64,000 nt of DNA from a virus (IMGVR_UViG_3300006217_000002), one strand, 5' to 3'; counted from the stretch's first letter, positions 9,781 through 44,832 are shown. The notes: generated from the sequence alone by a model not told the origin. Numbers and translations: made by a program.

Positions 9781-11631
9781 ATGATAAAAGGCAAAAACCC
9801 TAACTTACTGAATGTTACGTATATAAGACCTGATAAGAAACGTAATCAGCAAGAATGCTTTCAGGTAATATATAAGACTGAAGATGGGGAAGTTCATTAT
9901 TCAGATGAACCGCCTAATGCGGATATATATATCGTAAAGCCGGAGTATAGAAATTATAATTACAATAAACCTCAAGAGAGAATAGAGCACATGGATAAAA
10001 TAACTGTGCCAATTTCTCAAATTAGAAGAGCTATTGCAGATGCTGCTGGTGAATGGGGAGAGATGGTCGTTAAAAGAGCAGAGCAACAACATAATTTCAG
10101 AATGCTCAATGAGTTATATAAATGGCCATACTGTTATGGATGTGATTTTCAGCCAGAGTATTATTATTACAGAAACTGGTATGAGAAATATAAATTAGGA
10201 ACTCCAAAACTTACGAAGGCATTTCTCGATATCGAGACTGATATGATGGATTATATAGTTGATATGTCTGATATTCCTAATTCAGCATTCTCTCCAGTTA
10301 ACTTGATAACTGTAATTCTTGAGGATACGAGTGATGTATATACATTCGTATTGAAACCATATGAACCACATAGACTTGGTCGTGATGATATAGATTATGC
10401 CAAAAGGTATAAATATTACGAGAAACAAAAAGCTGCTCATGAAAAGATGATGAGCAACATAAGCGGAATGTATAATACACTTCATAAGGAATTCGATGAA
10501 GTGTATGGAGAATTAAATTATCATATCCGTGATTATGATAAAGAGATAGATTTAATTGCAGATGTGTTTAGGTTATTAAATACTAGAAAGCCTAACTATT
10601 GTATGATGTGGAATATGAGATTCGATATTCAATACTTATTCCATAGAATTAAAGCTCTTGGATATGATCCTGCATCCGTGATGTGCCATTGGGATTTTAA
10701 AAATCCTAGATGTAGTTTTAGAGAAGATCGCTCAACATATTTGTTAGAGAAGCAGTTTGACTTCTTCTACTGTTCCTCTTATACTCAGTATATTTGTCAG
10801 ATGCGTTTATATGCATCTATAAGGAAATCGCAACACAAACTTAGATCTGTATCCTTGAATGCCATCGGTGACAGGGAACTCCATGATAGAAAAGTTGAAT
10901 ATCCTGAAGAAACAAATATCATTACATTCCCATATGAAGATTGGATAAGATTCATTATATATAATATCAAAGACGTTTTACTTCAGAAAGGAATCGAACG
11001 AAAGACTTCTGATGTAATGACTTACTATACACGATCTCAAACTAATGTGACTCCATATAATAAAATATTTAGGGAGACACATCTACTTCGAAACGTACGT
11101 GAAAAGTATTTTGAGATTGATGGATGGGTCCAAGGTAATAACCTAAACATCTTAGGCGATTATATGGATGAATCTGAAAAGAGATTCTATGGTGAAGAAG
11201 ATGATGACGATGATGAGAGTGAAGCAACATTTAAGGGAGCTATTAATGCTGAACCTCTTATGAATGATTATGTGGGAGAGCCAGTATTAGGAATTCCTTC
11301 AAATAACGTGTTTGCTAACTCTATGGACTATGACATGGGAGCATTCTACCCATCAATTAAAATAGCTTCCAATATGGATCCTGGAACCCTTCTGTATAAA
11401 GGATCATTTATTAACGAAGAATTCATTTCAGGAGAATATCTCAACCGATCCCTGAACGATAAGTATGAGGAGAAAGATAAGAACGGTAATATCAGACAGC
11501 TGGATATAACTGGAGAGGCAGTGAATACCTATGTGTCTCATAACATGCTGACATTTGGGTTTAATTATTTTGGATTGCCAGACATACCAGACATGTATTC
11601 AGAGGTAATGAGTCGTTTAGCAATTTCCTAA
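9781..11631 (+). CDS. Family B DNA polymerase, N-terminal fragment. It holds the 3'-5' exonuclease domain and palm motif A. The six-frame track starts it at 9763.
   Basis: Exo I FLDIETD (~10219). Exo II WNMRFDIQYLFHRIK. Exo III YNIKDV. Motif A DYDMGAFYPSI (~11330-11355). The ORF ends before motif B and is followed by a terminator. Confidence 0.8.
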   Translation: MIKGKNPNLLNVTYIRPDKKRNQQECFQVIYKTEDGEVHYSDEPPNADIYIVKPEYRNYNYNKPQERIEHMDKITVPISQIRRAIADAAGEWGEMVVKRAEQQHNFRMLNELYKWPYCYGCDFQPEYYYYRNWYEKYKLGTPKLTKAFLDIETDMMDYIVDMSDIPNSAFSPVNLITVILEDTSDVYTFVLKPYEPHRLGRDDIDYAKRYKYYEKQKAAHEKMMSNISGMYNTLHKEFDEVYGELNYHIRDYDKEIDLIADVFRLLNTRKPNYCMMWNMRFDIQYLFHRIKALGYDPASVMCHWDFKNPRCSFREDRSTYLLEKQFDFFYCSSYTQYICQMRLYASIRKSQHKLRSVSLNAIGDRELHDRKVEYPEETNIITFPYEDWIRFIIYNIKDVLLQKGIERKTSDVMTYYTRSQTNVTPYNKIFRETHLLRNVREKYFEIDGWVQGNNLNILGDYMDESEKRFYGEEDDDDDESEATFKGAINAEPLMNDYVGEPVLGIPSNNVFANSMDYDMGAFYPSIKIASNMDPGTLLYKGSFINEEFISGEYLNRSLNDKYEEKDKNGNIRQLDITGEAVNTYVSHNMLTFGFNYFGLPDIPDMYSEVMSRLAIS

Positions 11632-11632
11632 A

Positions 11633-11666
11633 GTAAGGAGGGAGATAATCCCTCCTTACTTTTTTG
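11633..11666 (+). terminator. Intrinsic terminator
   Basis: gtaaggagggagataatccctccttac plus tttttt. Confidence 0.65.
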
Positions 11667-11835
11667 CACTAATACCCACAAGAGAATTAATCGGAACTGC
11701 TCTATCTTAAATATAAAATAAATTATATATTCTTATTAAGTCATAAACTAAAGAGTATACACTCGTAAGAATATGTGAATTTTAACATCAAGATAGAGTG
11801 TATATTTAAAAATAAAGAAAGGAGTTGTTTAAAGT

Positions 11836-14307
11836 ATGGCAAAATATACTGATGATATATTTGATCATTTGAAGTCAGATATACAAAAGATCAGAGTACG
11901 TCATCGCCAGTACATTTCTTACTCAAATGAAGCTGGAGCTAAATCAGTTGTATTCGAAATTCTATACAATGCAGTTGATGAATGTAAAACACCTAAATCT
12001 CCTGCTAACTCGATTCATATTATAATGGATGACAGAGATGGATTCATAACTGTGGAGGATAATGGTAGAGGTATCCCCACTAGTATATTGGAAGAAGTGT
12101 ATACTAGCTTAAACATGGGATCTAATATTAATACCTCCAATAAAGCTAAAGATAAGGTTGAGATTCTTGGACAGAATGGAACTGGTACATTAGCTATTTG
12201 CGGGTTAGCAGAGAGAGTTGAAATTACTTCATATAGAGGCGGTACAGAAAACGTATTCAAAACATTGGTGTTTGAAGAAGGAATTAAAGTAGACGAGATC
12301 GATGGTAAATGTGATCCTAATAAACATGGGATGTGGATCAAATATAAACCATCTAAAGTCATGGGGAAACAAACGAAAATTGTCTGGGAACAGATAAGAT
12401 CTGAACTCCTTAATCTACAATATTTGAATAAGAAGAAGATTAATATCGATTCTGTTTATTATAACAGGAATGGAGAGAAGACTGTAGAGAAATATAAGCA
12501 GGCTCCATTTGAAGATATCTTAACGAGAAATAATAAAGAAGATATCATCAGTAGTAAAATTTGTATCACAATTGATGCAGATGATATTATTGAAGAACTT
12601 GATGGAGAAGATGTTAAGAGATTTTTAAGCATGGATCTTGCGTTTGTTTATACATCTTCACTTAATCCTTATATCGATTCTTTCTCTAACTCTAATAATA
12701 CCGTTGATAATGGTGATCATCTTGATGGAGCTATTGAGGCTTTATGCAGATTCTTACAGTCACAGACTAAGGCAAGTCTTGGAGATAAAGAGAAAGATAG
12801 ATTAGATATCAAATGGGATGATGTGAAGAGTGGATTGTCTGTAGCTGTTGCTCTTAGAACTAACTTCGAAAGAATCTATACAGGGCAGACTAAACACAAA
12901 GTTGTATCAAATGAACTTAAGAGAATTATTGTATCTCTTTATGCGGATGCATTGCAGAATTATTTCAATAAAAATCCTGGTCAGTTAAAAGACCTGATTA
13001 ATATTGTTAAGATGAATGCAAGAGCTAGAAGAGAAGGAGATAAAGTAAAGACAGCGGTTGTTAAAGGAACTCTAAGTAACTGGTCTTCTTACAAGATGAA
13101 AAATTATGATCCTTGTACTAATAAGGGATTGAAGGAGTATAAGGAATTATTCATCATTGAGGGAGATTCTGCAAAGGGTTCTTTGAAACAAGCCAGGGAT
13201 CCAAAGTATCAAGCTCTATTTGCTATTAGGGGAGTATCTGCTAATGTGTTTAAAATGACACTTGATCAAGTAGTAGGACCTAAGGGAAACAAAGAGTTTA
13301 CTGATCTCATTACAGTAATGGGATGTAATGCTGGAGTTAAGTTTGATATTAATAAGCTTCAGTTTAACAAGATCATTATAGCATCTGATGCTGATATTGA
13401 TGGATATTTCATCAGGAGCTTATTAATGGCATTCTACTTTAAACTATTCCCTGAGATCATTAGAGATGGCCGTCTTTATATAGCTGAGCCTCCTTTGTAT
13501 CGGATTGATGATAAGAAAGATCCATTCGTAATCAATAAAGAAGATTACATCAATCGATATGTGAAATCTGCATCTAAAGACTATAAAGTTGGCTATCAGT
13601 CTAAAGACGATGAAGTTAATATAAGATATCTTGGCAAGAGTGAGTTAGCGGATTTCCTTAGTCAGAGCAGCTCATATACTGATGACATGAAGATGCTTGT
13701 TGATCATTATAAAGTATCAGATAGATTACTGGAGATCATCCTTGAAGAAATTGTAATGAACGGATTTGATCCAGATCATCCTAACATCTCTAGTATGATT
13801 AAAAATATCAACATTCAGCATCTAATGAATCGTATTGGAGAAGAATTTCCTGAGCTGTATTTTGACGATAAGGATAAACTTATTAAGGGAGCTCTTGATG
13901 GTAAATATCAACTTATTGAGATCTCAGAACAGTTAATCCGTAAATCAGTTCCACTGCTTGTAGTAATGAGGCAGTGGTTACCGGCAGAAGATACTAACTT
14001 AGTATTGAAAGATAATAAAACAGGAACAGAACACAAATTATCATTACTTGGATTATTGAAAATTCTGAAAAAGTATCAGCCAAATATTCTTCATAGATTT
14101 AAAGGTCTTGGTGAGAATGACGACGATGACATTAAGACAACGATTATGGATCCAAATACTAGAACTCTTATCAGAGTAAATATATCTGATATTGAAAATG
14201 ATATGAAAGTATTTCAAGTTCTAAGGGGTGGATCTCCTGCTGATGCGTTAGCTCGTAAAGAGATGATGAAGAATTACAAGATTCCAAGAGATATGATAGA
14301 CACCTAA
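11836..14307 (+). CDS. Type IIA DNA topoisomerase ATPase + Toprim subunit (GyrB / T4 gp39-like)
   Basis: GHKL motif VEDNGRGIP (~12053). Toprim EGDSAKG (~13160) and IIASDADIDG (~13384). Confidence 0.8.
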   Translation: MAKYTDDIFDHLKSDIQKIRVRHRQYISYSNEAGAKSVVFEILYNAVDECKTPKSPANSIHIIMDDRDGFITVEDNGRGIPTSILEEVYTSLNMGSNINTSNKAKDKVEILGQNGTGTLAICGLAERVEITSYRGGTENVFKTLVFEEGIKVDEIDGKCDPNKHGMWIKYKPSKVMGKQTKIVWEQIRSELLNLQYLNKKKINIDSVYYNRNGEKTVEKYKQAPFEDILTRNNKEDIISSKICITIDADDIIEELDGEDVKRFLSMDLAFVYTSSLNPYIDSFSNSNNTVDNGDHLDGAIEALCRFLQSQTKASLGDKEKDRLDIKWDDVKSGLSVAVALRTNFERIYTGQTKHKVVSNELKRIIVSLYADALQNYFNKNPGQLKDLINIVKMNARARREGDKVKTAVVKGTLSNWSSYKMKNYDPCTNKGLKEYKELFIIEGDSAKGSLKQARDPKYQALFAIRGVSANVFKMTLDQVVGPKGNKEFTDLITVMGCNAGVKFDINKLQFNKIIIASDADIDGYFIRSLLMAFYFKLFPEIIRDGRLYIAEPPLYRIDDKKDPFVINKEDYINRYVKSASKDYKVGYQSKDDEVNIRYLGKSELADFLSQSSSYTDDMKMLVDHYKVSDRLLEIILEEIVMNGFDPDHPNISSMIKNINIQHLMNRIGEEFPELYFDDKDKLIKGALDGKYQLIEISEQLIRKSVPLLVVMRQWLPAEDTNLVLKDNKTGTEHKLSLLGLLKILKKYQPNILHRFKGLGENDDDDIKTTIMDPNTRTLIRVNISDIENDMKVFQVLRGGSPADALARKEMMKNYKIPRDMIDT

Positions 14308-14320
14308 TAAGGAGGGATAT

Positions 14321-14620
14321 ATGTCGTACGGAGGATATGGACATTCAAACAATGAAGGAAGTAGTTGGGTAACTATTATAGTTGGAATTATATTACTTCT
14401 ATTCTTAACATCTGCTACTAAATCCTGCAGTAGAAGTGAATCTCATATGATATATCTGAGTGAAGGATATTGCTATCATGAAGATACTCATATTATTTAC
14501 ATCGAAAGTGAAGTAGGCAGATATGGTGATAGAACATCATATGCTATCTATTATGATGAGAATGGTAAAGTCAACAAATATGATCCTGAGACAGGAGAAT
14601 GGATTCCAGTTGATCAATAA
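14321..14620 (+). CDS. Small protein with an N-terminal transmembrane helix
   Basis: RBS AAGGAGG. WVTIIVGIILLLFLTSA hydrophobic segment. Confidence 0.45.
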   Translation: MSYGGYGHSNNEGSSWVTIIVGIILLLFLTSATKSCSRSESHMIYLSEGYCYHEDTHIIYIESEVGRYGDRTSYAIYYDENGKVNKYDPETGEWIPVDQ

Positions 14621-14656
14621 GATTATATATTCTCTTATCACAAGGAGGTAAAGTAT

Positions 14657-14977
14657 ATGGTTGAATTTATTAAAAGTCCTTTGATAGTAATGGACGCCTG
14701 TAAATTTAATGGGAAATTTACTGATGGTATTACTGTAAAGGAGGCAGTAGAGGAATGTATTGAAAATTCCCCGTCAGAAAATGGTAGCATCAGGCTAGTC
14801 AATTCTAATCCTAAAGGATTGGATTATCAATTTGACTTTAATGAAAAGAATCTCGAAAATAAGTATCATGAATATGAAGATACTATTGGAAATTATAAGG
14901 TGCTATCTATAGAAGCAACTCAATACTACATGTCAATGACATTTCATGTTACGATAATATTTAAGGAGGTAAACTAG
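14657..14977 (+). CDS. Hypothetical protein
   Basis: ORF with AAGGAGG RBS. Confidence 0.45.
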   Translation: MVEFIKSPLIVMDACKFNGKFTDGITVKEAVEECIENSPSENGSIRLVNSNPKGLDYQFDFNEKNLENKYHEYEDTIGNYKVLSIEATQYYMSMTFHVTIIFKEVN

Positions 14978-14978
14978 T

Positions 14979-15761
14979 ATGCCAAGAAAACCTAAGGAAG
15001 TAGAACAGGAGATCGATGTTAATGAAAAGAAGAAACCGGAGACATACGTAACAAGGTGGTTTAAAGAGCATTGTGTTGATAATGTTCGTGAAATTAAGAT
15101 CATCTCCGATTTGACTGCTCGATCTGCAGAAGAACAATTCTCACTCTATATTAGATCTGGGAATAATGAAGTGTTTGCTGTTATATTCTATGCAACCATG
15201 ATGATTATTCTGGAATTCCTGAAGAGCAAAGAGAAGTCTTACAACGAGCTTACAATCGAGATTTGTAATTCTATCAACATCGGTTATTGTAATAACGATA
15301 GCGAGGAGAATGAAAAGGTTGGTAACTTTATGCCTATCCTTGAGTACATTGGTATCAACAGAAACATTGTGAATGATGGATCCGTTCTTGATGCCGATAA
15401 GACTAAACAGAATTACATCCGCTGGAAAGAACTCAACATCAAAAAGAATGTTGAGTATTATAAGGAAATTCAGGAAAAGGCTTATGAGAGGCTGAAGACA
15501 GAGTTTAAGACCAATCTTAGAACATCAGAGGCTGTGATTCCATTATTCTGTATATTCATGGATCATATCTCCAATGTTCTTAAGATGAAATTCAAAGAGG
15601 CTGAAGGAACTGATGTCTCTGAAGTATTCATGGAAGTATTAGGTTTGTTCAAGGTCTTTTATTCATATGACGAGGAAGAAGATCAGGAGATTATTGAATT
15701 CGAGCCTAACATCACGATGAAGCTTGCTCTTAAGGAAGACGGAATCGCCAGCAGAGAATAA
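14979..15761 (+). CDS. Hypothetical protein (260 aa)
   Basis: ORF with AAGGAGG RBS. Confidence 0.5.
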   Translation: MPRKPKEVEQEIDVNEKKKPETYVTRWFKEHCVDNVREIKIISDLTARSAEEQFSLYIRSGNNEVFAVIFYATMMIILEFLKSKEKSYNELTIEICNSINIGYCNNDSEENEKVGNFMPILEYIGINRNIVNDGSVLDADKTKQNYIRWKELNIKKNVEYYKEIQEKAYERLKTEFKTNLRTSEAVIPLFCIFMDHISNVLKMKFKEAEGTDVSEVFMEVLGLFKVFYSYDEEEDQEIIEFEPNITMKLALKEDGIASRE

Positions 15762-15782
15762 AACATATATAATATTGAATAA

Positions 15783-15817
15783 GAAAGGAGGGATTATCTC
15801 CCTCCTTTCTTTTTTTA
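15783..15817. terminator. Bidirectional intrinsic terminator between convergent genes
   Basis: gaaaggagggattatctccctcctttc plus a T-run. Confidence 0.65.
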
Positions 15818-16555
15818 TTACATAAATTGATCCCAATCCATATCAAGGTGAAATTTATCTCTCCAATCATTAAGAAGAGCATTTTTATCAGCTTCAGCTG
15901 ATTGATAGTCTTCAACTTTTAAACTGATTTGACCAAATGCTGTAGGAATTCCTTCATACAATTTCAAGTTATTATAGAGGAACGTTTTCATATCAAGCGT
16001 AGCTAATTCCATAAATGAATCATAGCAACTATCTTCAATTGTTTCTCCACTTGGATCATGTTCAGCTGCTACTTTAAATGTCAATATAGTCTTAGGATAT
16101 CCATATAATTTAATCTTGTTTTCCCCTAAATAATCAAATGTAGGTTCTGATCTCATTTGACCAGCAAGCATCATATATGCTTGACTCGTAATAACGCCTT
16201 GTACTGATCTGTTGATACCATATGCAGGAGCTACATCTCCAAAACTTCCTCTATTATTATACTGAGGAATTCTTACAGATATTACATATTTAATAGGAGT
16301 TATTGTTAAAAATGGATGTAACATATATATTGATTGCCTTTGATCAACTACTTTCATCTTTGACAAATCAGCATCATATTCTCTTATCCATGGAACAAAT
16401 TCCGAATATTCAGGAATAGTTATAGTTGTCAATACATCGTTAATAATTTTTTCAGTAGGTACAGGTTTATTTGTTACATCATCTTTGAATGGTAAAGTTA
16501 TACCATATAAACCAAGTCCCATTTTAAGGCTTGATATTACTTTGCTCATATTCAT
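15818..16555 (-). CDS. Hypothetical protein (245 aa)
   Basis: ORF. AAGGAGG 9 nt upstream on the minus strand. Confidence 0.5.
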   Translation of the reverse strand: MNMSKVISSLKMGLGLYGITLPFKDDVTNKPVPTEKIINDVLTTITIPEYSEFVPWIREYDADLSKMKVVDQRQSIYMLHPFLTITPIKYVISVRIPQYNNRGSFGDVAPAYGINRSVQGVITSQAYMMLAGQMRSEPTFDYLGENKIKLYGYPKTILTFKVAAEHDPSGETIEDSCYDSFMELATLDMKTFLYNNLKLYEGIPTAFGQISLKVEDYQSAEADKNALLNDWRDKFHLDMDWDQFM

Positions 16556-16652
16556 ATCTAGATCCTCCTTTAAAATCGTATATAAGATTATCCCAAAGAT
16601 ATATTATAAAGTTAGTGAACAAAAAGAAATTTCATCTAAGGAGGAATCAAGT

Positions 16653-16994
16653 ATGAAGATTGGAAATGTTATTGGCCCATTAACTGAACTTCAAAATACT
16701 GTTCATAATGCAAAGAATGATATATTTGAAAGTATTAAAGGTATTAATGCGACAGTTGCAATCACCGGACAGTTTCCCTATAATGTAGCAGAAGATCTTA
16801 ATCAAAGAATCAAGGCATACTGCGACAAATTAGAGAATCAATTAGAAGTACTTATCGAAGCCGGCAAAGAGGAGAAACTATATGAACTTCGAAATGTAGT
16901 TGTTAAAGAAGTATTGGTAACTAATCAATTTATCACATATGCTAAGTCAAGTGTTGACAAAATAAGTTCATGGTTAACTGAAAGGAGAGTATGA
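16653..16994 (+). CDS. Hypothetical protein. Start trimmed to the ATG with an RBS; the track lists 16485.
   Basis: taaggaggaatcaagtATG. Confidence 0.45.
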   Translation: MKIGNVIGPLTELQNTVHNAKNDIFESIKGINATVAITGQFPYNVAEDLNQRIKAYCDKLENQLEVLIEAGKEEKLYELRNVVVKEVLVTNQFITYAKSSVDKISSWLTERRV

Positions 16995-16995
16995 T

Positions 16996-17388
16996 ATGGA
17001 ACTTACAAGCAAAAATGTTCAGGAACTGTTTACAAAGTGTCTCTATAATAAGGAGATTAAAGAGGGCGAGACTCCTGAGGATGTTATATTAGTTGAAGGA
17101 ATTGTTCACAACTACGGTCTTGATAAAGCATCTGTAGAAAATGAAAAAGAAAACATTTCTTCAATGCTACATCAGCTTCCTAAAGAGTTTATGGAGGCAA
17201 CTGGGGGTGGGTATTCGTTCCTTGCCGCATGCAATAATGCAGATGGAGTGCAGTGGACAGGCATGCATCTTGTAATGGAAAGCCTGTTTGTACTTGGTAT
17301 GGCGGCTGGAATTGTAAAATGTTTACTGCCACGTGATTTCTGGCCAATGCTTCCTGGATCAGTTCCATACTATGTAGTCACAGATTAA
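16996..17388 (+). CDS. Hypothetical protein
   Basis: ORF. RBS gaaaggag. Confidence 0.45.
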   Translation: MELTSKNVQELFTKCLYNKEIKEGETPEDVILVEGIVHNYGLDKASVENEKENISSMLHQLPKEFMEATGGGYSFLAACNNADGVQWTGMHLVMESLFVLGMAAGIVKCLLPRDFWPMLPGSVPYYVVTD

Positions 17389-18284: not shown

Positions 18285-18290
18285 TAACAT

Positions 18291-18951: not shown

Positions 18952-19711
18952 ATATAGAATATCACGTATAAGAAAATCTAAATTATTTAAAATTAAAAGT
19001 TATTATTGGTACTACTATAGTAGTAATCGGCGAAAAAGAATATCCCTTATTTTCAATGATATATTATAAGAGTATAAGAATGGGGATAAACATACCCTTG
19101 AAAAGCTTTCTTTATTGAGACTCATACAGCAATCCAAACTATAAAACAGATTATGAATGTATGAAGAGAAGTACGCCTGGCGCAAGAGGCGCGGCATAAT
19201 AGCGGTGAATTTGTAACGCGCGATACAAAAGATCCGCTTGACGCAATTATGCTATATAGGCGTAACAAAGAATGACCGCCGGCGGCACCCGCTGGGTTGA
19301 AGACCGCGACGGTAAAAAGCGGAGCAAGTAGCTCAAAAGAATTCTGAGTCTCGTAAATATGATTATAGGTGCTTACAGCAATACACAAGTATTCTTTATG
19401 GGAAAAGGAATTATAGCATCTAGAATGATCTTATGACAATAATAGTTACGACTATTATTTAGACACAAACAGCAATATATCTTTCAAATGTATGAAAACA
19501 AAAATTGTGTCTAGTAAATAAAGAAAGCCGAGTAAAGATGTATTTTATCCCCTTCTTCTAAAGACCCGTACAGCAAATCAAAAAAAAATAAAAAGCCTGC
19601 AAATCTTTTTAAAAATTGGGTCTTGATACTATAGACATTTACAGCAACCAAAAAATCTTATATTAAAGAAGACAAAACAATGTCTAGAATATTTTAAGGA
19701 GGAAAAGAATT
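18952..19711. other. 760-bp noncoding region, the longest in the window. It holds a GC-rich structured island (~19160-19340, including the palindrome ccgccggcgg) and AT-rich flanks.
   Basis: No ORF with an RBS. Local GC is far above the genome background. Stops occur in all frames. Confidence 0.6.
19125..19647 (+). repeat. Five dispersed copies of (T)ACAGCAA at 19125, 19374, 19469, 19569 and 19640. Two copies have the extended form TAGACA-N3-ACAGCAA.
   Basis: Direct reading of the sequence. tagacacaaacagcaa at 19461-19475 and tagacatttacagcaa at 19632-19647. Confidence 0.6.
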
Positions 19712-21277
19712 ATGGGATTCTATGAAGCGATGGAGAAAACAGTCAATGGGAATAATAACATTTCTGTGACGGAGAATGGTGCTATTGGATACAGGTCGAC
19801 GGGCAGGAGCCTGTTAGACCTTAATTTTTCCACGTCCTCTTTGAGGAATATGGATCCTGAGAGAATTACTTCGCAATTCTCTCAGGCCTGGGAAGAGGAC
19901 CGTGAGCTGGCGTTGCGCTGGTTATTCTTCCTTCGTGATGTGAGAGAAGGTCTTGGTGAGAGAAGATCGTTCCGAATCATTCTTCATTGGCTCGGAGAGA
20001 ACTATCCTATTCTTACCTGCAAGCTTCTTGTCAATAAAACTGATGAGGGATACGTCATTCCTTTCTACGGTAGGTGGGATGATATCTTCGAACTGATGGA
20101 TATGTTCCCGACACACATCATCAACGTTGTTAAGAAACAGATTAATTCAGATCTTTTTAACGCTGGAAACAATAAACCTGTGTCTCTATTAGCTAAGTGG
20201 ATGCCTTCTAATAATGCTACAAGCAAAGCAACCCTCAAACTCGCTGATCGTTTAGCTAGCGGAATGAGGCTATCTCCGAGGAACTACAGGAAGATGTTAT
20301 CAAAACTTCGTAAGTACATCGATGTCGTCGAGGTAAAGATGAGCGGTGGAGAATGGGACAAGATCAACTACGAGAGTGTTCCATCTAAAGCTAATCTTCT
20401 GTACAATCAGGCTTTCTACAGGCATGATCCTGAAAGACGAAGAGAGTTCCTTGATAAACTTTCTACCGGTGAAGCGAAGATCAATGCTTCTACATCATAT
20501 CCGTATGAGATTTACCATCGGATGAGAGATGCGGATGATGATGAGGTAGCTACGCTTGAAGCTATGTGGAAATCTATTCTGGAAGGAGTGACTATCGAGC
20601 AGAACGTCATTGTAGTATGTGATGGATCTGGTAGTATGGAAAAGCCTATTTCTACCAGTACAAATGCTACTGCATATGATGTAGCAAACTCCCTGGCCCT
20701 ATACTTCTCAGAAACATTGAGGGGTGAGTTCCATGGGAAGTTCATCACTTTCAGTGAATCTCCTAAGCTTGTGGATGTTGGATGTTATGAAACCCTTTCT
20801 GAGAAGATGAGGGAAACATATAGACACAGAGAAGTTGCTAATACCAACATTGAGGCGGTTTTTGACTTAGTCCTTCAGACTGCTGTTGAAAATAACCTGA
20901 GTGCTGGTGATATGCCTGATTCGATCTTAATCATTTCCGACATGGAATTTGATAGATGTTCAGAGGATAATTACGGGAGTTACCTGATGCGTGATGTAGG
21001 AAGATCTAAGACCTTATTCGAACGTATCGCTAAGCGATTTGCTGAGAAAGGGTACAAACTTCCGAGACTTATCTTCTGGAACGTGTGCAGCAGAACGATG
21101 ACAATTCCTGTGAAGGAAAATGAACTCGGGGTTGCACTTGTATCAGGCTTCAGTGTCAACAACATCAACATGATATTGAGCGGAGAAATGGATCCTTATC
21201 TCTGCCTTGTTCATGAGCTTAAGAAAGAACGTTACGATCGTGTGATCGACGTTGTTGGCGAAGAGCTCAACATGTAA
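19712..21277 (+). CDS. vWA-domain protein with a MIDAS motif. It resembles DUF2828 or Ro60/TROVE proteins.
   Basis: VVCDGSGSM (DxSxS MIDAS) at ~20611-20640. Helical N-terminal half. RBS AAGGAGG. Confidence 0.55.
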   Translation: MGFYEAMEKTVNGNNNISVTENGAIGYRSTGRSLLDLNFSTSSLRNMDPERITSQFSQAWEEDRELALRWLFFLRDVREGLGERRSFRIILHWLGENYPILTCKLLVNKTDEGYVIPFYGRWDDIFELMDMFPTHIINVVKKQINSDLFNAGNNKPVSLLAKWMPSNNATSKATLKLADRLASGMRLSPRNYRKMLSKLRKYIDVVEVKMSGGEWDKINYESVPSKANLLYNQAFYRHDPERRREFLDKLSTGEAKINASTSYPYEIYHRMRDADDDEVATLEAMWKSILEGVTIEQNVIVVCDGSGSMEKPISTSTNATAYDVANSLALYFSETLRGEFHGKFITFSESPKLVDVGCYETLSEKMRETYRHREVANTNIEAVFDLVLQTAVENNLSAGDMPDSILIISDMEFDRCSEDNYGSYLMRDVGRSKTLFERIAKRFAEKGYKLPRLIFWNVCSRTMTIPVKENELGVALVSGFSVNNINMILSGEMDPYLCLVHELKKERYDRVIDVVGEELNM

Positions 21278-31427: not shown

Positions 31428-32543
31428 TTGAATATGAAATCTTATAAAAATCTCTGGAAAATATTTATTTCAGAGAACACTATAAGGTATTCTATTTCAA
31501 AAGGTGCCATTGGGAAAAAGAAAAGGCGTGAAGTTAGAAAAATCATGAAAGATGTTGACGGTTACGTCGATGTCATTCATGATTACGCCTTGAATTTCCA
31601 TAATTATCATCATGAACCAGTCAAAATCCGTGATGGATGTAGTGGTAAGGAGCGAGAGATAATCGTTCCTAAATTTAATGAACACGTAATCCATCATATG
31701 GTGGTTTACGCGATGATGCCTTTGCTTACTAAAGGCATGTATAAACATACTTATTCTTCAATTCCTGGAAGAGGTCTTCATAAAGGAATGAAAAGAATCA
31801 GAACGTGGATTGACAATGATCCTAAAAATGTAAAGTATTGTCTTAAACTGGACATAAAAAAGTTCTTTAACTCGATTGATCATGAAATATTAATGAATAA
31901 ATTTAGAAAATATATTCATGACAATAAATTCTTGAAAATACTTCAAGAAATAGTTGATGCATCTCCTAATGGAATTCCTTTGGGATTTTATACTTCCCAT
32001 TGGTTTGCTAATTGGCTACTTCAACCTTTAGACCATTTTATCAAAGAAGAACTTCATATTGTTCACTATATAAGATATATGGATGATATGATTTTATTCG
32101 GGTCTAATAAGAGGCAATTGCATAAAGCTCGTAAAAAGATAGAAGAGTTTTTAAGTAATCTTAAATTAAAGATTAAAGATAATTGGCAATTGTTTAGATT
32201 CGATTATATCAAAAATGGAAAACATCATGGTCGTCCACTTGATTTCATAGGATTCAAATTCTATAGGGATAGAACTATTTTAAGGAAGAATATTATGTTA
32301 AGACTTACAAAGAAAGCGAGGAAAATCGAAAAGAAAGGTAAGTTTACAATTCATGACGCTCACCAAATGATGTCCTATTTAGGATGGATAGACTGGACTG
32401 ATACGTACAAAGTGTATACAAAGTACGTAGCTCCCTACATTAACTTTAAGAAGTGTAGAAAGTACATTTCACAGTATGATAAGAAACAGAGAAGACTTTT
32501 AAAAGAATTAAAGGAGGAATATAATTATGGAGCTGAATTTTAA
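31428..32543 (+). CDS. DGR reverse transcriptase
   Basis: IPGRGLHKGM, LDIKKFFNSIDHEIL, and YIRYMDDMILFG (YMDD, ~32076-32090). Sits 150 bp downstream of the TR. Confidence 0.9.
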   Translation: MNMKSYKNLWKIFISENTIRYSISKGAIGKKKRREVRKIMKDVDGYVDVIHDYALNFHNYHHEPVKIRDGCSGKEREIIVPKFNEHVIHHMVVYAMMPLLTKGMYKHTYSSIPGRGLHKGMKRIRTWIDNDPKNVKYCLKLDIKKFFNSIDHEILMNKFRKYIHDNKFLKILQEIVDASPNGIPLGFYTSHWFANWLLQPLDHFIKEELHIVHYIRYMDDMILFGSNKRQLHKARKKIEEFLSNLKLKIKDNWQLFRFDYIKNGKHHGRPLDFIGFKFYRDRTILRKNIMLRLTKKARKIEKKGKFTIHDAHQMMSYLGWIDWTDTYKVYTKYVAPYINFKKCRKYISQYDKKQRRLLKELKEEYNYGAEF

Positions 32544-38108: not shown

Positions 38109-38148
38109 ATAGTTATATATTATACTACAAATAGAAAGGAGAAAAGAT

Positions 38149-38313
38149 ATGGTAGTATTAGTTATACTTGTGCTTTTAGGAGCAGTAGTTTTGTGGTTTT
38201 TATTATCACCGTTATTTGGCAAAATTGGAGATTCAGTTTCCAAGAAAAGCCAGAAAATGTTTAGTGATGATGAAGATAAAAATACTGGAGAGGAGGGAGA
38301 AGAACATGAATAG
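38149..38313 (+). CDS. Unlisted 54-aa single-TM protein with an acidic tail
   Basis: AAAGGAG 6 nt upstream. Encodes MVVLVILVLLGAVVLWFLLSPLFGK... Confidence 0.45.
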   Translation: MVVLVILVLLGAVVLWFLLSPLFGKIGDSVSKKSQKMFSDDEDKNTGEEGEEHE

Positions 38314-38387
38314 TGGATAAAATATAACATAAATATCACACTTTGAAACTAATAACAAAGCACCTTTAAAAAGGAGAATAAAGAATA

Positions 38388-39341
38388 ATGAGTAAAGCAA
38401 AGAAAGTCACTGGAGGTATTGTAGCAGCTGTTGTAATCGTGGTAGCTCTCGTGTTAGTTGCACTGAGTCTGAGGAAGATCGACGCAGGCTATTCAGGAGT
38501 AGTCTATTCCATGAACGGTGGAATTGAGGATCGTGTGCTTGGTCAGGGTTGGCATTGGATTAAGCCTGGTCAGAAGTTGATTCCATATAGTATCGGTATC
38601 GAACAGTCATATCTTACGGCTACCAAGGATGGTGACTCTCCTGACGATGATAGTTTCTCAGCTCCTTCCAGCGATGGTAAAGGGTTGACAATGGAGCTTA
38701 CTTTCACATATCGCTTTGATGAAGACAGGCTTCCTGAGATCTTTACGAGATTTAAAGGAAGAAGCGGTAAGGAAGTACTGAATACATTCATTAAACCTAA
38801 TATCATTAGCTGGTCTAAGGAAGTAACGGCTAAATATCCCGTTACTGAAATCTTAGGAGAAAAGAGATCAGAACTCAATAACGTACTGTCTGATTATCTC
38901 GCTGAGAAGTTCTCTCCTTACGGTATTATCATCGAAAATGCATCCCTTATCAATATTGAAACTGATGATGAAACCAGAGCATCTATCACTCGTAAGGTAA
39001 CAGCTCAGCAGGAGCTTGAATTAGCAAATATCGAAGCAAAAACAGCTAAGATTCAGGCAGAGAAAGATAAAGAAGTAGCCCTTATTGAGGCAGAAAAGAA
39101 TAAGGAAACTGCAGCTCTTAAGGCAGAACAGATGGCAATTGAAGCTCAGGGTAAAGCAGATGCTTTGAAGATCGCGGCAGAAGCAGAGGCAGAAGCAAAC
39201 CGTAAGATTGCTCAGTCTCTTACACCTGAATTGATCGAGAAGATCAAGTATGAGCAGTGGAATGGAGAACTTCCACAGGTTCAGGGTTCGTCTACACCGA
39301 TCATCGATTTCAGAGAAGACGGTGTGGCAACTACGGAATAA
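38388..39341 (+). CDS. SPFH/band-7 domain membrane protein (prohibitin/HflK-like)
   Basis: N-terminal TM helix. Band-7 core. A/E/K-rich coiled coil QQELELANIEAKTAKIQAEKDKE... Confidence 0.7.
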   Translation: MSKAKKVTGGIVAAVVIVVALVLVALSLRKIDAGYSGVVYSMNGGIEDRVLGQGWHWIKPGQKLIPYSIGIEQSYLTATKDGDSPDDDSFSAPSSDGKGLTMELTFTYRFDEDRLPEIFTRFKGRSGKEVLNTFIKPNIISWSKEVTAKYPVTEILGEKRSELNNVLSDYLAEKFSPYGIIIENASLINIETDDETRASITRKVTAQQELELANIEAKTAKIQAEKDKEVALIEAEKNKETAALKAEQMAIEAQGKADALKIAAEAEAEANRKIAQSLTPELIEKIKYEQWNGELPQVQGSSTPIIDFREDGVATTE

Positions 39342-39558
39342 TACATAAAGTAATAACAGGGATAATTGGAGCAATACATTGCTCCAATTATTTTTTTGCT
39401 AAACTAAGCGCAATTGTGGTAAATAAGATTATGGGATATAATACGGATATACTCCAATGTACAGAGTGTAATTTGGATTATTATCTTTCTTTTAATAATA
39501 ATATATAATAATATATAAAATACAGATGTATAAACTATACGGGAAGGAGGAAGTTATT

Positions 39559-39903
39559 ATGTTCGATATCACACCATTAGTGCTATTGGTTATTGCAGCA
39601 GGGGTAACAGCCATTGCATATTTCGGGAGGAAATATGTAGCTCCGGTTCTTAAAGATCAGATGACAATTGAGGAAAGAAGAAACCTCTATGATGCTGTTG
39701 TAATCGGAGTAGCAGCTGCTGAACAGCTGTGCAAGACAGGTGTAATCAAGAAAGATGAACGAATTCAGCATGTATTCGATTTTCTCGAAGCTAACAATAT
39801 CACATATGACAGAGATGTTGTTAATGACATGATCGAAGCCGCTGTTCTTGATTTACCTAAATCTTTTCTTGGTCTTGAAGACGAAGAGAAAAAGAAAGAA
39901 TAA
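39559..39903 (+). CDS. Putative holin-like small membrane protein. Start trimmed; the track lists 39526.
   Basis: GGAAGGAGG then ATG. TM helix PLVLLVIAAGVTAIAYF. Confidence 0.4.
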   Translation: MFDITPLVLLVIAAGVTAIAYFGRKYVAPVLKDQMTIEERRNLYDAVVIGVAAAEQLCKTGVIKKDERIQHVFDFLEANNITYDRDVVNDMIEAAVLDLPKSFLGLEDEEKKKE

Positions 39904-39916
39904 CTGAAAAGATCAT

Positions 39917-39951
39917 AATAAGGAAGGGAGGATGATCCTCCCTTCCTTATT
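39917..39951. terminator. Bidirectional terminator
   Basis: aataaggaagggaggatgatcctcccttccttatt. Confidence 0.65.
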
Positions 39952-39956
39952 ATTGT

Positions 39957-41573
39957 TTATGATGTACTTCTAACGAATTCTACATCTTTCTTAGGAATAT
40001 CTTTAATTTCAGGATAACTCTTAGATCTTGCTCTATGAGTTCTAACGTAATAGCCGTTTTTATCCTTAGCTAAAGAGCAAGCAGTTGATTTCCCGAATAA
40101 CTTATAAAATTCATTTCTCTCAGATGAAGTAATCGCATTTATTTCTTTCTTCATCTTTTCATACGCCTTTTTACTTTCAGTTATCGGTTCCTCTTTCTTA
40201 GGATCTTCTTTCTTCTCTTCCTTTGGAGTAGTTTCTTTCTTAGGTTTATTGACAGCAGCTTTCTTTTCATCAACTACTTCAATCTTGGAAAGTTCTTCGT
40301 TGATGATCTTATTTACTCTATTCTGGAATTCTCCAAAGTTTGTAAGATATTCATCTAAGATCTTCTCAAGTTCTGTTAAGTCTTCCTGTAACTGTTTCTT
40401 TACGATTGTAGATGTATTAGGATCTGCTATATCAGATTTATATTCCTTAATTAATGCACGAGCCCTGTGAATGTTTGTTTTATGAACATCATTAATAGAA
40501 TCTTGAACGATCATAACAATTATATCCTGTCTTGTTCTTTCTTTTTTAAAACGAGAATTAATCATCTTTTCAGATTCTTTATCAAGTTTCTTAAGGCCGT
40601 TTAAAAGCTGAGGACCAAATCCATACATACGAGCAAAGTTATCTGCAAATGCTTCTGAAAATTCTTGTCTTGTAAACTTATCTTTGTCAGATTCAATCAT
40701 CCTTCTAACTTTTTCCAGCTTCTTCTGTTGAACTTTTTCTTTACCTAAGATTTTATCTCTAATGGCATTGAATATAGAACTTACAAGAGTTCCTACCAAT
40801 AATACTCCAAAAATACAAAAGATAACAATAAAATTGTTTTTATGCTTATCTATAAATTTCTTTTCATTTTTATTGATAGCATGCTTTCTATCTGTAAGAT
40901 ATTTAGATAGAATATTCACTTCTGTGTATTTAATATCTACTAAAGCAGGATCGATAGAATGACCAAATTCATGTAACATAACTGCCATGATTTCTTCTTC
41001 ACTCAATGCTCTTATTAAGCCGAGAGAAAGATATACATTCATTCTTACTGATTTACTCTTGTCATAGAATCCTTTATCTGTCACAAGACCTTCAATGGGA
41101 AATCTATCTGCATGATAAATTTCTGCGTTTAGAATTCTACTCTCAAACATCTTCTCTTTGGAATTATATTTCTCAATATAAGGTTCTATAGAAACATCTC
41201 TAAAACCAAATACTTTTGAGAATTCATCTTCGAGTTGTTTGAATAGTTGATTCTTCCAGAAAGCTTTTGGATCAAAGTATTTAACTTTGGTTTTAGTTAC
41301 AGGCTCTCCTTTCTTTCTTTTATTATCAGCATCCTTATTATTTTCAATTCCTTTATCCTGCTCGGCAATTTGAGATTCCAATAGATCTTTGATCTTTTTG
41401 ATAGTTTCTACAATTGGCATCACACTTTCTTTACCGTTAGCAAATACTGCCTCTGTATAAAACTGATCAATAGACTTCTCGACTTCTACAGATTCATCAA
41501 ACAAATTTAAAGAGAAATTAGAAGATGGATCTGATTTCTTTTCAGGGATGGTTAGATTAATAACGTCATACAT
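39957..41573 (-). CDS. Membrane zinc metalloprotease (HExxH) with a lysine-rich C-terminal tail
   Basis: IMAVMLHEFGHSIDP. TM helix FIVIFCIFGVLLVGTLVSSIF. AAGGAG RBS on the minus strand. Confidence 0.6.
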   Translation of the reverse strand: MYDVINLTIPEKKSDPSSNFSLNLFDESVEVEKSIDQFYTEAVFANGKESVMPIVETIKKIKDLLESQIAEQDKGIENNKDADNKRKKGEPVTKTKVKYFDPKAFWKNQLFKQLEDEFSKVFGFRDVSIEPYIEKYNSKEKMFESRILNAEIYHADRFPIEGLVTDKGFYDKSKSVRMNVYLSLGLIRALSEEEIMAVMLHEFGHSIDPALVDIKYTEVNILSKYLTDRKHAINKNEKKFIDKHKNNFIVIFCIFGVLLVGTLVSSIFNAIRDKILGKEKVQQKKLEKVRRMIESDKDKFTRQEFSEAFADNFARMYGFGPQLLNGLKKLDKESEKMINSRFKKERTRQDIIVMIVQDSINDVHKTNIHRARALIKEYKSDIADPNTSTIVKKQLQEDLTELEKILDEYLTNFGEFQNRVNKIINEELSKIEVVDEKKAAVNKPKKETTPKEEKKEDPKKEEPITESKKAYEKMKKEINAITSSERNEFYKLFGKSTACSLAKDKNGYYVRTHRARSKSYPEIKDIPKKDVEFVRSTS

Positions 41574-41640
41574 TTATTCTCTCTCCTTTACTATTAATAA
41601 TAAATTTCTATATAAGATTAAAGAAAGGTGGATGGTAGCT

Positions 41641-42468
41641 ATGGCTATTAACGAAATTGTAAAAAATGCATTGAAAACTCATAAGAGTAAGATTGAAGTA
41701 ACTCAGTGGGCGATAATTGATGGGGTGGCTTCATTGATATATTCTGAATACATATATAATATGAAGAATAAGGTCACGCCAGGTAGAACAATATTGATGG
41801 TTCCTAAAATATCGGCTGTACAAGAATTACTTTCTGAAGAAAGTCAATTGATTACATGGATTTCAGATAATCTCATAGATAAAATGTTGGATGATCTTCT
41901 GTTTAAACAGTTTATTGAATCTCCTGAGTTGGAAATGTTTAAAGAAAATAATGTAGAGATTATGAAGACTATTTTAGATCTTTATATAATTCCAAACATT
42001 AGTAGATGTATTCCAAATACAATAGCAAAGAAATTTGCTATAGGAGATCCAAAGAATCAGGATATTAGAGAATCGAATGAAATAGATTTATTCTCTAGAA
42101 AACCTATTCCTGATGATTATTTAAACTATCTATCCCATGAGATTGTTTTAAACCTATTGACTCTATTGCCAACTATTAAGAAGGATATCACTGTTCCTGA
42201 AAGTAATGCATCTATTCAGATGTCTGCATCAGAAATACTTACAATAAAAAATGTGAATGCAATATGTCCAGTGTTAATTGATAATGTAATATTTCATAAT
42301 ACTATAATGAATTTATTATCGTTTGTAACAAATACTACAATTAAAGCGTTGGATAATACAGAAAATGTTGGTCTTAAGAATAATAAATTATCAATCGACT
42401 ATATAGTTTCTACTGGAGCTTTCAATAATGTATCTCTGACTCACCTTAATAAGGAGGAATGTATATGA
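41641..42468 (+). CDS. Hypothetical protein. Start trimmed to the ATG with an RBS.
   Basis: aaagaaaggtggatggtagctATGG. Confidence 0.45.
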   Translation: MAINEIVKNALKTHKSKIEVTQWAIIDGVASLIYSEYIYNMKNKVTPGRTILMVPKISAVQELLSEESQLITWISDNLIDKMLDDLLFKQFIESPELEMFKENNVEIMKTILDLYIIPNISRCIPNTIAKKFAIGDPKNQDIRESNEIDLFSRKPIPDDYLNYLSHEIVLNLLTLLPTIKKDITVPESNASIQMSASEILTIKNVNAICPVLIDNVIFHNTIMNLLSFVTNTTIKALDNTENVGLKNNKLSIDYIVSTGAFNNVSLTHLNKEECI

Positions 42469-42680
42469 AAGCTAAATTTATAGGTAAAAATGGTTCAATG
42501 GGATTTAAGAGGGGTAAAGTTTATGATTTAAGATGTGAGATAAAACCAGGTACATGGAATGGGAGGTAGACGCATTGTATTTATATACTTATATAGTAAA
42601 TGTGATAATTCCTAGTGTCCGTATGAATCGCTTGAATCAGTGTTAGCAAATTGGGAAATCCTTGGGTAGAATAAGTGAAT

Positions 42681-42712
42681 AATAGAGAGGTGGGATATCC
42701 CACCTCTCTATT
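42681..42712 (+). terminator. Intrinsic terminator
   Basis: aatagagaggtgggatatcccacctctctatt. Confidence 0.6.
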
Positions 42713-42786
42713 ATGTTTATCCTAATAATTATTTTGAAGATATATTATCTAAATAATAATAGAAAATATTTTGGAGGTTTATATAG

Positions 42787-44832
42787 ATGGGATTTAGAAA
42801 AGACTACGTAGAAGAAGTTACTAAAACTATCATGATGATGAATCCTAAATTGAATAAATTAGAGGTTGAGGATATAGTTCATCAGATAGTAAAAGAACGA
42901 ATATGTGATCCTAGTATAGTTATGGATAATAACGTGACTGGAGATAATCATACCATCAAGCTGAGTGAAATGTGTAACTGGATAGAAAAAAGAAACCCAG
43001 TAGTATCAGGTAATGCAACGTTTTATTGCCAACCGTCTGAACTGTTGTCACCTACATCAAATATGTTGAGAAGTTTGAAGAAAGGTAGAAAGAAAGTTAA
43101 GAAAGAGATGTTTTCACTGAAAGCTGGATCTGATGAATATGCAATGAAAGATTTGGAGCAGCAGAATATCAAGGTTGTAATGAATGCGGAATATGGTGGA
43201 TCTGGTGCACCTACAGCAGCATTCTATACTAAGTATTCGCCAGCAGCAACTACCCTAATGGCACAATCTATCATTACTACTATGGCTGCATTCTTCGAAT
43301 CTTATGTAGGTGATAATCAGAAGTTCTTTAACAACAATGAGTGTTTCGACTGGTTGAATCATGTATGTAAGAAAGATGAAAAGATACCTAAGTGGGTAAA
43401 ACGTCCAACGGCTGAAGATGTATATAGAAGAATAACTAAGCACTTCTATATTTTAGATAAGAATATTCTTCCTTGTCTAAAAGATTATATTGATAACAGA
43501 ACTTCAGATCAGCTTGTTTATCTATATTATGCGAATAACATAAAAGAATTCGTCCGTAATCATGGTAATATCCAGCAGCTGTTGATCAATGTATTATCTA
43601 AACTTCCTAACTATGAAGCTGCTATTAAAGATATTCCTGAGCAGTTCAGAACTAAGTTTCCATGGGATTCTGAAGGGAAATATATCGTCGACTATAATAA
43701 ATGGATTTCTAAAGAGATGTTTCTTAATCCATATGATATTCCTGATGTTATAAAAGACGATATGGAGGAGTTTATTTCTCTAATGACTCAATTTATCTAT
43801 GTTGAATATATAACTCCTGATAGCATAGTTAAATTGAATAATCATAAAAGAAATACAGTATTACTTGTTGATACAGATTCTAATATGATCAACGCAGATT
43901 TATTTGTATCATTTGTATTGAACGAGATCGTTGCGGGAGATACATTTGGAAGAAAGAAAATGTATAACGAGATGATACTTGTTAACGTATTAGCAGCATC
44001 ATTGGATAGATCTGTAGCTAAGATACTTGATTATTATGGAAGATGTCATAGGATGGATGAAGAGTCTAGAGCTGAATTAACAATGAAGAATGAGTTCATG
44101 TTTAGACGTTTCTTCTTGATGAGAACTAAGAAGAGATATGCTGCATCAATCGTTCTAAGAGAAGGAAATATCATCATTCCGTTTAAGCCGGAAATTAAAG
44201 GTGTAGATTTTATTAAAGCTGGAGTTACAGACGAGGTAGAATCGAAGTTTAAAAATATGCTACAGAACCACATCTTGTATTCAGACGACTTGGAATTACA
44301 TGAATTGATGACTGAGTTGAAACAGTTTGAAAGAGAGATATTCGATGATCTAAAGAATGGAGGAGTTACATTCTTAAAGCAGCAACAATTTAAAGCAGAA
44401 GGAGGCTATAAGAATATTGCTAAAGCATGGAGTTTACCAGTATTTCGTGGGTCTATGGTATGGAATGAATTATTTCCTGATAAGAAAATATATTCGCTGG
44501 ATAGGGTTCGTATTCTAAAGACTATAGTAACTGATCAGAAGGATTTGGAGAGAGTAAAAGAAAAATATCCTGAAGACTATAATGAGGTTATTGCTAAAAT
44601 CTATATGTCTGACTATGATGAAATTCGTAGATCTGGACTGAAATATATTTGTATACCGAATTCAGTTAAAGAAATTCCTAAATGGATGATTCAAATTACT
44701 GATTTTGATGTAATTATTTCTGACGTGATTTCATCGTTCAAGTCTGTTCTTGAAGCATTAAGGATAGAAGATATAGATTTTAAGACTCCAAATGGTAAAG
44801 CAAGTTTGACGTCATGTTTGATAAGTATGTAA
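42787..44832 (+). CDS. Family B DNA polymerase, C-terminal fragment (palm motifs B and C, thumb)
   Basis: Motif B KVVMNAEYGGSG (~43171-43206). Motif C LLVDTDSNM (~43861-43887). KKRY in RTKKRYAASIV (~44121-44153). Confidence 0.85.
   Translation: MGFRKDYVEEVTKTIMMMNPKLNKLEVEDIVHQIVKERICDPSIVMDNNVTGDNHTIKLSEMCNWIEKRNPVVSGNATFYCQPSELLSPTSNMLRSLKKGRKKVKKEMFSLKAGSDEYAMKDLEQQNIKVVMNAEYGGSGAPTAAFYTKYSPAATTLMAQSIITTMAAFFESYVGDNQKFFNNNECFDWLNHVCKKDEKIPKWVKRPTAEDVYRRITKHFYILDKNILPCLKDYIDNRTSDQLVYLYYANNIKEFVRNHGNIQQLLINVLSKLPNYEAAIKDIPEQFRTKFPWDSEGKYIVDYNKWISKEMFLNPYDIPDVIKDDMEEFISLMTQFIYVEYITPDSIVKLNNHKRNTVLLVDTDSNMINADLFVSFVLNEIVAGDTFGRKKMYNEMILVNVLAASLDRSVAKILDYYGRCHRMDEESRAELTMKNEFMFRRFFLMRTKKRYAASIVLREGNIIIPFKPEIKGVDFIKAGVTDEVESKFKNMLQNHILYSDDLELHELMTELKQFEREIFDDLKNGGVTFLKQQQFKAEGGYKNIAKAWSLPVFRGSMVWNELFPDKKIYSLDRVRILKTIVTDQKDLERVKEKYPEDYNEVIAKIYMSDYDEIRRSGLKYICIPNSVKEIPKWMIQITDFDVIISDVISSFKSVLEALRIEDIDFKTPNGKASLTSCLISM

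Follow-up and report, generated by a model that had tools for sequence, protein, structure and literature searches.

Two open reading frames (ORFs) of the virus IMGVR_UViG_3300006217_000002 carry between them the parts of one family B DNA polymerase (PolB). We examined a stretch of 64,000 nucleotides from this virus (hereafter the window), in which the first ORF ends after the exonuclease motifs and palm motif A, and the second, which holds motifs B and C, follows after a gap of 31,155 nt that is filled to 91% by ~37 non-overlapping ORFs. We put at about 90% the probability that these ORFs specify DNAP-N and DNAP-C, the non-covalently joined subunits of a split replicative DNA polymerase of the phiKZ/AR9 type. 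The structure of the genes, their motif content, homology and conservation, and a break point matching that of the relatives are observed directly; by analogy with the phiKZ enzyme, we infer that the window pair would form a stable 1:1 complex and be active.

The preliminary description of this DNA had reported an N-terminal ORF with motifs Exo I to Exo III and motif A that stops and is followed by a terminator, and we confirmed the ORF, the motifs and the hairpin. The TAA stop codon of the N gene (11629-11631) is directly followed by a strong terminator, made of an 11-bp GC-rich hairpin (11633-11659) and six T. Two ATGs are candidates for the start of the gene, 9781 (616 amino acids) and 9763 (622 amino acids). 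A Shine-Dalgarno (SD) sequence, AAGGATGGTGA, stands ahead of ATG 9781; the first ATG, at 9763, has none and is the one chosen by gene callers. Residue numbers in the N protein run from ATG 9763, so that the motif A aspartate D524 becomes D518 when counted from 9781. The N ORF matched PHROG 3011 ('DNA polymerase') at 2.9e-49, and no Pfam family was matched above cut-off, the sole match being a sub-threshold one to DUF4124. Single-sequence phmmer found no match to the N protein among PDB sequences, and a five-sequence profile was required: built from the N protein and four relatives, it matched RB69 gp43 at 2.2e-28, once over the exonuclease domain (residues 91-355) and once over the motif A segment (residues 404-436, FDLTSLYPSII). 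When phiKZ gp82 was compared with all window ORFs, the N ORF was the sole match (2e-8).

The second protein showed a complementary content. The Pfam family PF20286 divDNApol (divergent family B DNA polymerase) was matched at 2.5e-42 over profile positions 35-690 of 705, the score of 145.4 bits exceeding the 25.7-bit cut-off, and PF00136 was matched at 9e-12. A profile of the C protein matched archaeal, eukaryotic and RB69 PolB at the fingers/motif B region and at the KKRY region, and phiKZ gp50 matched the C ORF and no other ORF of the window (1.6e-16). Motif B, motif C and KKRY had been described as lying in a separate gene with its own ribosome-binding site; all three were located there, and a GGAGG was found ahead of the start codon. 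Residues K129/N133/G137, D362-T-D364-S and K449/Y451 are invariant in the alignment of C proteins (alignment A2). A pattern scan of the C protein found no DxxSLYPS-type motif A, and in a six-frame scan of the window the motif A pattern was seen only at 11332. Motifs A, B and C each occurred once in regular-expression scans of the six frames of the whole window.

The enzyme of phage phiKZ has been characterised in a recent preprint (Basu et al., bioRxiv 2026, PMC13648687). Its gp82 (DNAP-N, with motif A residue D562) and gp50 (DNAP-C, with motif C residue D426 and the remaining palm, the fingers and the thumb) were purified as a stable, interdigitated 1:1 complex and resolved by cryo-electron microscopy (cryo-EM) at 2.1 Å. 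In primer-extension assays, D562A abolished polymerisation and D151A/E153A abolished proofreading (PMC13648687). The break between the two proteins lies inside a helical 'palm insertion' domain composed of N 589-638, C 1-98 and C 221-419, and a third protein, Rhc (RNase H-clamp), boosts activity; RB69 is given as the closest solved relative (PMC13648687).

We aligned the window N protein with those of phiKZ, AR9, S6 and phiR1-37 (five proteins, alignment A1). The phiKZ residues D151, E153, D251, D452 and D562 correspond to D156, E158, D288, D404 and D524 in the window, all of them invariant in A1, and phiKZ D426 corresponds to D364 in A2. In these alignments the three segments of the palm insertion fall on N 551-622, C 1-68 and C 175-357. 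The break positions of the window, AR9 and S6 are at most 4 alignment columns apart, and in A1 the C-termini of the window and phiKZ N proteins are no more than 1-2 residues apart. The profile matches of the N and C proteins to RB69 and other PolB put the break between the first palm strand and the fingers, and the earlier placement between motifs A and B thus holds. The proposal that the polymerase is built in trans from two polypeptides was likewise borne out by homology: it has been demonstrated for phiKZ gp82/gp50, and the window residues align with theirs.

Together, these results suggest that the subunits would be translated separately from distant transcription units and would then fold together, without a covalent bond, into one polymerase/exonuclease. 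The proofreading exonuclease would come from DNAP-N, as would the N-terminal domain and the first palm strand, which bears the motif A aspartate; from DNAP-C would come the fingers with motif B, the thumb, KKRY and the aspartates of motif C. Because the catalytic parts are divided between the subunits, the polymerase active site would exist only in the heterodimer. The interface is predicted to be the helical palm insertion, formed by the C-terminal tail of DNAP-N, the N-terminal ~70 amino acids of DNAP-C and the ~180-amino-acid insert between motifs B and C.

Several observations weigh against this interpretation. The biochemistry is that of phiKZ, and the window pair is known from sequence alone. 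Identity to the phiKZ proteins is only 20-23%, and the phiKZ alignment near the break shifts by ~30 columns in a second alignment. The window covers 64 kb of a genome of ~285 kb, which limits the searches for Rhc, chimallin and a second polymerase, and a second complete polymerase may lie elsewhere in the genome. Within the window, phiKZ gp155 (Rhc) had no phmmer match among the ORFs; a loose pattern for the N-terminus of RNase H ([FYVILCWA][TSVCF]DG[SGA]) matched once, at position 310 of the ORF at 19688-21274, away from the N-terminal position expected for RNase H. Structure prediction gave a mixed picture. An AlphaFold2 (AF2) model of a chimera made of N residues 440-622 (the last 183 amino acids) and the C protein had a mean pLDDT of 81, with most of the C part above 90 and an all-helical C 175-357 insert; the N-derived segment stayed below 50 and gave no co-folding signal either way. 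Foldseek searches with this model returned only RB69/T4 gp43, at TM-scores of ~0.25, which are low because of the inserts; this outcome agrees with the preprint's choice of RB69 as nearest solved structure. The phiKZ cryo-EM chains were not among the matches of the PDB sequence and fold searches.

The preliminary description had called a separation by dozens of genes unusual, a view contradicted by the relatives and by the literature since 2011-2016. From record coordinates, the N and C halves are ~15 kb apart in AR9 (g132 and g152) and 18.6 kb apart in S6. The distance is 13-21 kb in PBS1, Internexus, SA1, PALS_2 and MarsHill, ~26 kb, on opposite strands, in the Fusobacterium JD-Fnp phages, and 35 kb in phiKZ (gp50 and gp82). 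In every relative listed, therefore, the halves are separate, distant genes at 13-35 kb, and wide separation is the rule in the phiKZ/AR9 group. The AR9 annotation already reflects the division, g132 being recorded as 'contains DnaQ-like 3'-5' exonuclease and partial catalytic domain' and g152 as 'DNA-polymerase catalytic subunit'. Exonuclease and polymerase were placed on two chains by Kazlauskas & Venclovas 2011 (PMC3201878), a 'split subunit DNA polymerase' of phiKZ was named by Thomas et al. 2016 (PMC5105663), and a missing fused exonuclease, a long helical insert and a small upstream gene were described by Iyer et al. 2021 (PMC7824862).

The likeness to phiKZ gp82 and gp50 extends to the two-protein architecture, a break in the palm insertion after motif A, the same catalytic residues on each subunit and a long helical insert between motifs B and C. 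Both phages are jumbo phages with multisubunit RNA polymerases, and both have the genes tens of kb apart (35 kb in phiKZ and 31 kb here). In contrast, the gene order is N then C in the window and C then N in phiKZ, and the 'little finger' insert of phiKZ DNAP-N (350-415) is absent from the window N protein, where it aligns with ~8 residues. This insert is confined to some Pseudomonas phages, and most non-Pseudomonas members are without it (PMC13648687). Neither Rhc nor chimallin was found in the 64 kb of the window, phiKZ gp54 (chimallin) having no match among its ORFs. AR9/PBS1, S6/SA1/PALS_2 and phiR1-37 (g170) share the break point, as measured in AR9 and S6, and have the halves 13-21 kb apart; AR9 also shares the core of its early promoters, which lies upstream of the window C gene. 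The gene order in AR9 and S6 is, however, the reverse of that in the window, whose phage belongs to a separate, uncultured gut lineage.

The T4-like split gene 43, which had been offered as the comparison, is less apt, the phiKZ/AR9 group being the proper one. Aeromonas phages 25 and 44RR do encode a family B replicase as two cistrons, 43A and 43B, whose products co-purify and are active (PMC2988022), and, of the solved structures, RB69/T4 gp43 comes nearest to both window proteins. The T4-like cistrons, however, are adjacent, with an untranslated spacer or a seg homing-endonuclease gene between them, and specify a canonical gp43 without a palm insertion; the window proteins belong to the divergent PF20286 clade and are encoded 31 kb apart. 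Pseudomonas phage MIJ3 is another jumbo phage with PolB in two pieces, interrupted by a putative split intein (PMC6892783). An HNH gene lies between the MIJ3 pieces, which bear intein blocks; the window pair has neither. Kelman and colleagues reportedly described, in 1999, a split PolB in Methanothermobacter. This polymerase and engineered split Pfu resemble the window pair in consisting of two non-covalent fragments broken in the catalytic half, but their break is in the fingers, and they have neither a phage context nor a dedicated interface domain. The engineered Pfu split lies at the fingertip (PMC3061061).

Naturally fused versions of the two proteins were found among the homologues. Three of the top 150 C homologues (P0163, P0232 and P0254, at loci L014, L015 and L016) are metagenomic single ORFs of 1224-1279 amino acids that carry Exo I-III, motif A, a short linker and then motifs B and C, and one of them lies on a 68-kb phage-like contig. 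As their reading frames run on across the break, they place the N tail and the C head in a single continuous fold. A quick neighbour-joining tree, not a robust one, scatters the fused proteins over three positions, each beside split-type proteins of ~650 amino acids, and this suggests that the halves were re-fused recurrently. Fused versions are not mentioned in the 2026 phiKZ preprint (PMC13648687). A broader proposal would make the split a maintained, reversible design and not a frozen accident. On this proposal, the halves appear to have been re-fused in three independent lineages, and assembly of the polymerase could be timed, free DNAP-N serving first as a stand-alone exonuclease; timing could arise because the subunits are in different transcription units, C behind an AR9-type promoter core and N behind a terminator-like hairpin. 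We consider such a design doubtful, at roughly one chance in eight.

The view taken in earlier literature was that of independent enzymes, a stand-alone exonuclease and a self-sufficient polymerase loosely associated at the fork. It draws on the assignment of both catalytic aspartates to the polymerase protein of phage EL (Kazlauskas & Venclovas 2011, PMC3201878) and on the description of a polymerase without a fused exonuclease, with a stand-alone exonuclease encoded elsewhere (Iyer 2021, PMC7824862). For the window proteins we find it quite improbable: the only motif A of the window is on the N protein, where it is invariant in the five N proteins and aligns with RB69 404-436, whereas the C protein has no motif of this type. 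Moreover, the phiKZ structure and the D562A substitution show that the aspartate of the N subunit is catalytic (PMC13648687), and AR9 g132 is annotated with a partial catalytic domain. The 2011 placement of EL D229 and D398 on the polymerase subunit conflicts with the phiKZ structure, and also with the presence of motif A on the N proteins of the window, phiKZ, AR9, S6 and phiR1-37; the 'motif A' around EL D229 probably lies in the helical insert.

Joining of the two polypeptides after translation by a split intein (protein trans-splicing) has precedents in phage genes, reported for MIJ3 PolB (PMC6892783) and for metagenomic 'fractured genes' (PMC2677866), and the ~100 amino acids of the N tail past motif A and the ~70 amino acids of the C head before the fingers superficially fit intein halves in length. 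Nevertheless, as had been claimed from the start, intein motifs are absent: no Hint/intein Pfam family was matched at E<=0.1 in the N or C protein, and HN followed by C, S or T occurs nowhere in N or in the first 250 amino acids of C. The segments next to the junction are homologous to phiKZ palm-insertion segments that are kept in the mature complex, and the fused proteins retain them as ordinary sequence, which leaves protein splicing with almost no probability. Equally negligible in our estimate is joining at the RNA level through a fragmented group I or group II intron that splices in trans. A reverse transcriptase (RT) ORF of the RVT_1 family (31428-32543) does sit between the halves, and group II introns are reported in phages (PMC12350094). 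However, the RT ORF lies ~20 kb from the N break and ~10 kb from the start of the C gene; Rfam returned nothing at the gathering threshold in the whole window and, at E<=1 around both junctions, no intron family but only sub-threshold matches resembling hairpins or small RNAs, in agreement with the initial statement that no intron structure is present. The N ORF also has an in-frame stop and a terminator and the C ORF its own SD and ATG, and all listed homologues are complete ORFs with matching ends and starts. That the ORFs are pseudogene remnants of a polymerase gene broken by rearrangement or mis-assembly is scarcely credible, even though phiKZ-related genomes are heavily rearranged (PMC5105663) and the small gene that immediately precedes the C half is disrupted in the window, because numerous independent contigs, from different samples, encode identical N and C proteins, every catalytic residue is intact, and cultured phages with an equivalent split replicate normally. 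The split polymerase assembled from two gene products is thus the reading that we retain, and its features are collected in Table 1.

Table 1. Features of the DNAP-N and DNAP-C genes and of their surroundings in the window.
Feature	Position	Strand	Basis or remark
DNAP-N subunit gene: N-terminal domain, 3'-5' exonuclease, first palm strand with motif A, C-terminal tail	9781..11631	+	homology
Exo I, FLDIETD	10222..10242	+	D156/E158 = phiKZ D151/E153
Exo II, WNMRFDIQYLFHRIK	10609..10653	+	D288 = phiKZ D251; also N284
Exo III, YNIKDV	10960..10977	+	D404 = phiKZ D452; also Y400
Motif A, DYDMGAFYPSI (D522-Y-D524-MGAFYPS)	11326..11358	+	catalytic D524 = phiKZ DNAP-N D562, RB69 D411
DNAP-N C-terminal tail, amino acids 551-622	11413..11628	+	aligns with phiKZ DNAP-N 589-638, palm insertion segment 1/3
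Intrinsic terminator	11633..11665	+	stem GTAAGGAGGGA/TCCCTCCTTAC, loop GATAA, six T
Small gene directly upstream of DNAP-C	42465..42669	+	broken in the window by a 1-nt insertion and TGG>TAG
16-bp terminator-like hairpin closing the upstream unit	42679..42714	+	parts DNAP-C from upstream transcription
ATATATTAT, candidate DNAP-C promoter (inferred)	42740..42748	+	identical to AR9 early-promoter core
Shine-Dalgarno GGAGG	42773..42777	+	9 nt ahead of ATG 42787
DNAP-C subunit gene: remaining palm, fingers, thumb, large helical insert	42787..44832	+	PF20286, homology
DNAP-C amino acids 1-68	42787..42990	+	aligns with phiKZ DNAP-C 1-98, palm insertion segment 2/3
Motif B, KVVMNAEYGG, fingers helix	43171..43200	+	K129, N133, G137
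DNAP-C amino acids 175-357, helical insert between motifs B and C	43309..43857	+	aligns with phiKZ DNAP-C 221-419, palm insertion segment 3/3
Motif C, VDTDS (D362-T-D364-S)	43867..43881	+	D364 = phiKZ DNAP-C D426
KKRY primer-binding motif, residues 448-451	44128..44139	+	pattern scan, alignment
ATATATTAT copies	6023, 8158, 16599, 19059, 33321, 38115, 42740, 53175, 53449, 55734	+

Both subunits are conserved well beyond the window. A search at E<=1e-5 found 260 homologues of the N protein. Those listed, 120 in number, are 605-631 amino acids long and 59-70% identical, lie on contigs of up to 297 kb (one labelled as a Lachnospiraceae metagenome-assembled genome) and end at a constant place. The C protein has 1196 homologues (HMMER, 1.84 billion representative sequences). 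Conservation of the two sets of homologues implies selection on both genes. Many metagenome contigs encode the exact C protein; the longest, k127_64217 of ENA ERZ941009, measures 285,144 bp and is from a mouse gut metagenome. The exact N protein occurs on nine further contigs with unchanged neighbours. These gene structures recur in independent metagenome assemblies and are therefore not an assembly artefact. The 50,697 deposited phage records contained no close relative; the best matches there, at only 25-29% identity, were in Bacillus AR9/PBS1, Staphylococcus S6/SA1/PALS_2, Yersinia phiR1-37 and the Fusobacterium JD-Fnp phages. From these sequence comparisons, the window phage appears as part of a large uncultured gut clade, the nearest N proteins (59-70%) being metagenomic only among those listed. 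PBS1, PALS_2 and phiR1-37 are reference phages that have multisubunit RNA polymerase (RNAP) but no chimallin (Prichard et al. 2023, PMC10299810).

The source of the window is an uncultured jumbo phage of the mouse gut, which has multisubunit RNA polymerases and is related to AR9/PBS1, Staphylococcus S6 and phiR1-37. The window encodes two phage-type multisubunit RNAP beta-like proteins, together with a topoisomerase II large subunit, an RtcB-like protein and a CCA-adding enzyme. The 1981-amino-acid ORF at 32-5977 (+) has segments that resemble tape-measure proteins and metallo-endopeptidases/endolysins, and it probably encodes a giant protein that serves in the tail or in ejection. The RT ORF between the halves (371 amino acids, plus strand; Pfam RVT_1 8e-21, PHROG 1423 3e-102) adjoins the 3' side of a 1484-amino-acid RNAP beta-like gene. 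It had no group II intron match in Rfam, and a repeat search found no template/variable repeats of the type of diversity-generating retroelements nearby; an intron remnant, a defence RT or another element are candidate identities.

In AR9, early promoters are annotated upstream of both polymerase genes, and ATATATTAT is their core. This sequence is enriched in the window (13 copies observed vs 5.9 expected), and its copies lie mostly 30-70 nt 5' of plus-strand genes with SD sequences. One copy is 39 nt ahead of the C gene, whereas the N gene has its closest upstream copy at 8158, two genes off. The sequence is a candidate early promoter for the virion RNAP of the uncultured window phage. Scans for Sigma-70 promoters performed no better than on shuffled controls. 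The N gene has no assignable promoter; immediately 5' of it is a terminator-like hairpin (9727-9754). Upstream of the C gene there is an AT-rich stretch as well as a 16-bp hairpin. A near-identical AAGGAGGG...CCCTCCTT stem is common to three intrinsic terminators of the window (11619-11669, 15769-15819 and 53788-53838) and has an SD-like sequence inside it.

The small gene directly upstream of DNAP-C is an intact 67-amino-acid ORF in a related locus (L002, 9678-9881) and is called as a truncated product of 34 amino acids in four of the five related contigs that cover the region (L001, L003, L004 and L005). It had no Pfam match, and it occupies the position where Iyer 2021 (PMC7824862) place a small SH3-fold gene beside the polymerase. 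In the Staphylococcus jumbo phages Madawaska, MarsHill, PB50, Machias and AH12, the DNAP-C match comes in two pieces, and in PB50 and AH12 it covers two or three annotated coding sequences. The C subunit gene of these five phages seems to be interrupted further, whether by an intron, by a homing endonuclease or through an additional split.

A polymerase with an active site shared by the products of genes 31 kb apart is the standard replicase of jumbo phages of the phiKZ/AR9 type and was already known. What is new is that the same break point extends to a large uncultured clade of gut phages and to relatives without chimallin, that the 2011 assignment of motif A to the polymerase subunit fails for the window proteins too, and that naturally fused single-chain versions exist. 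These single-chain versions are possible comparators for why the split persists.

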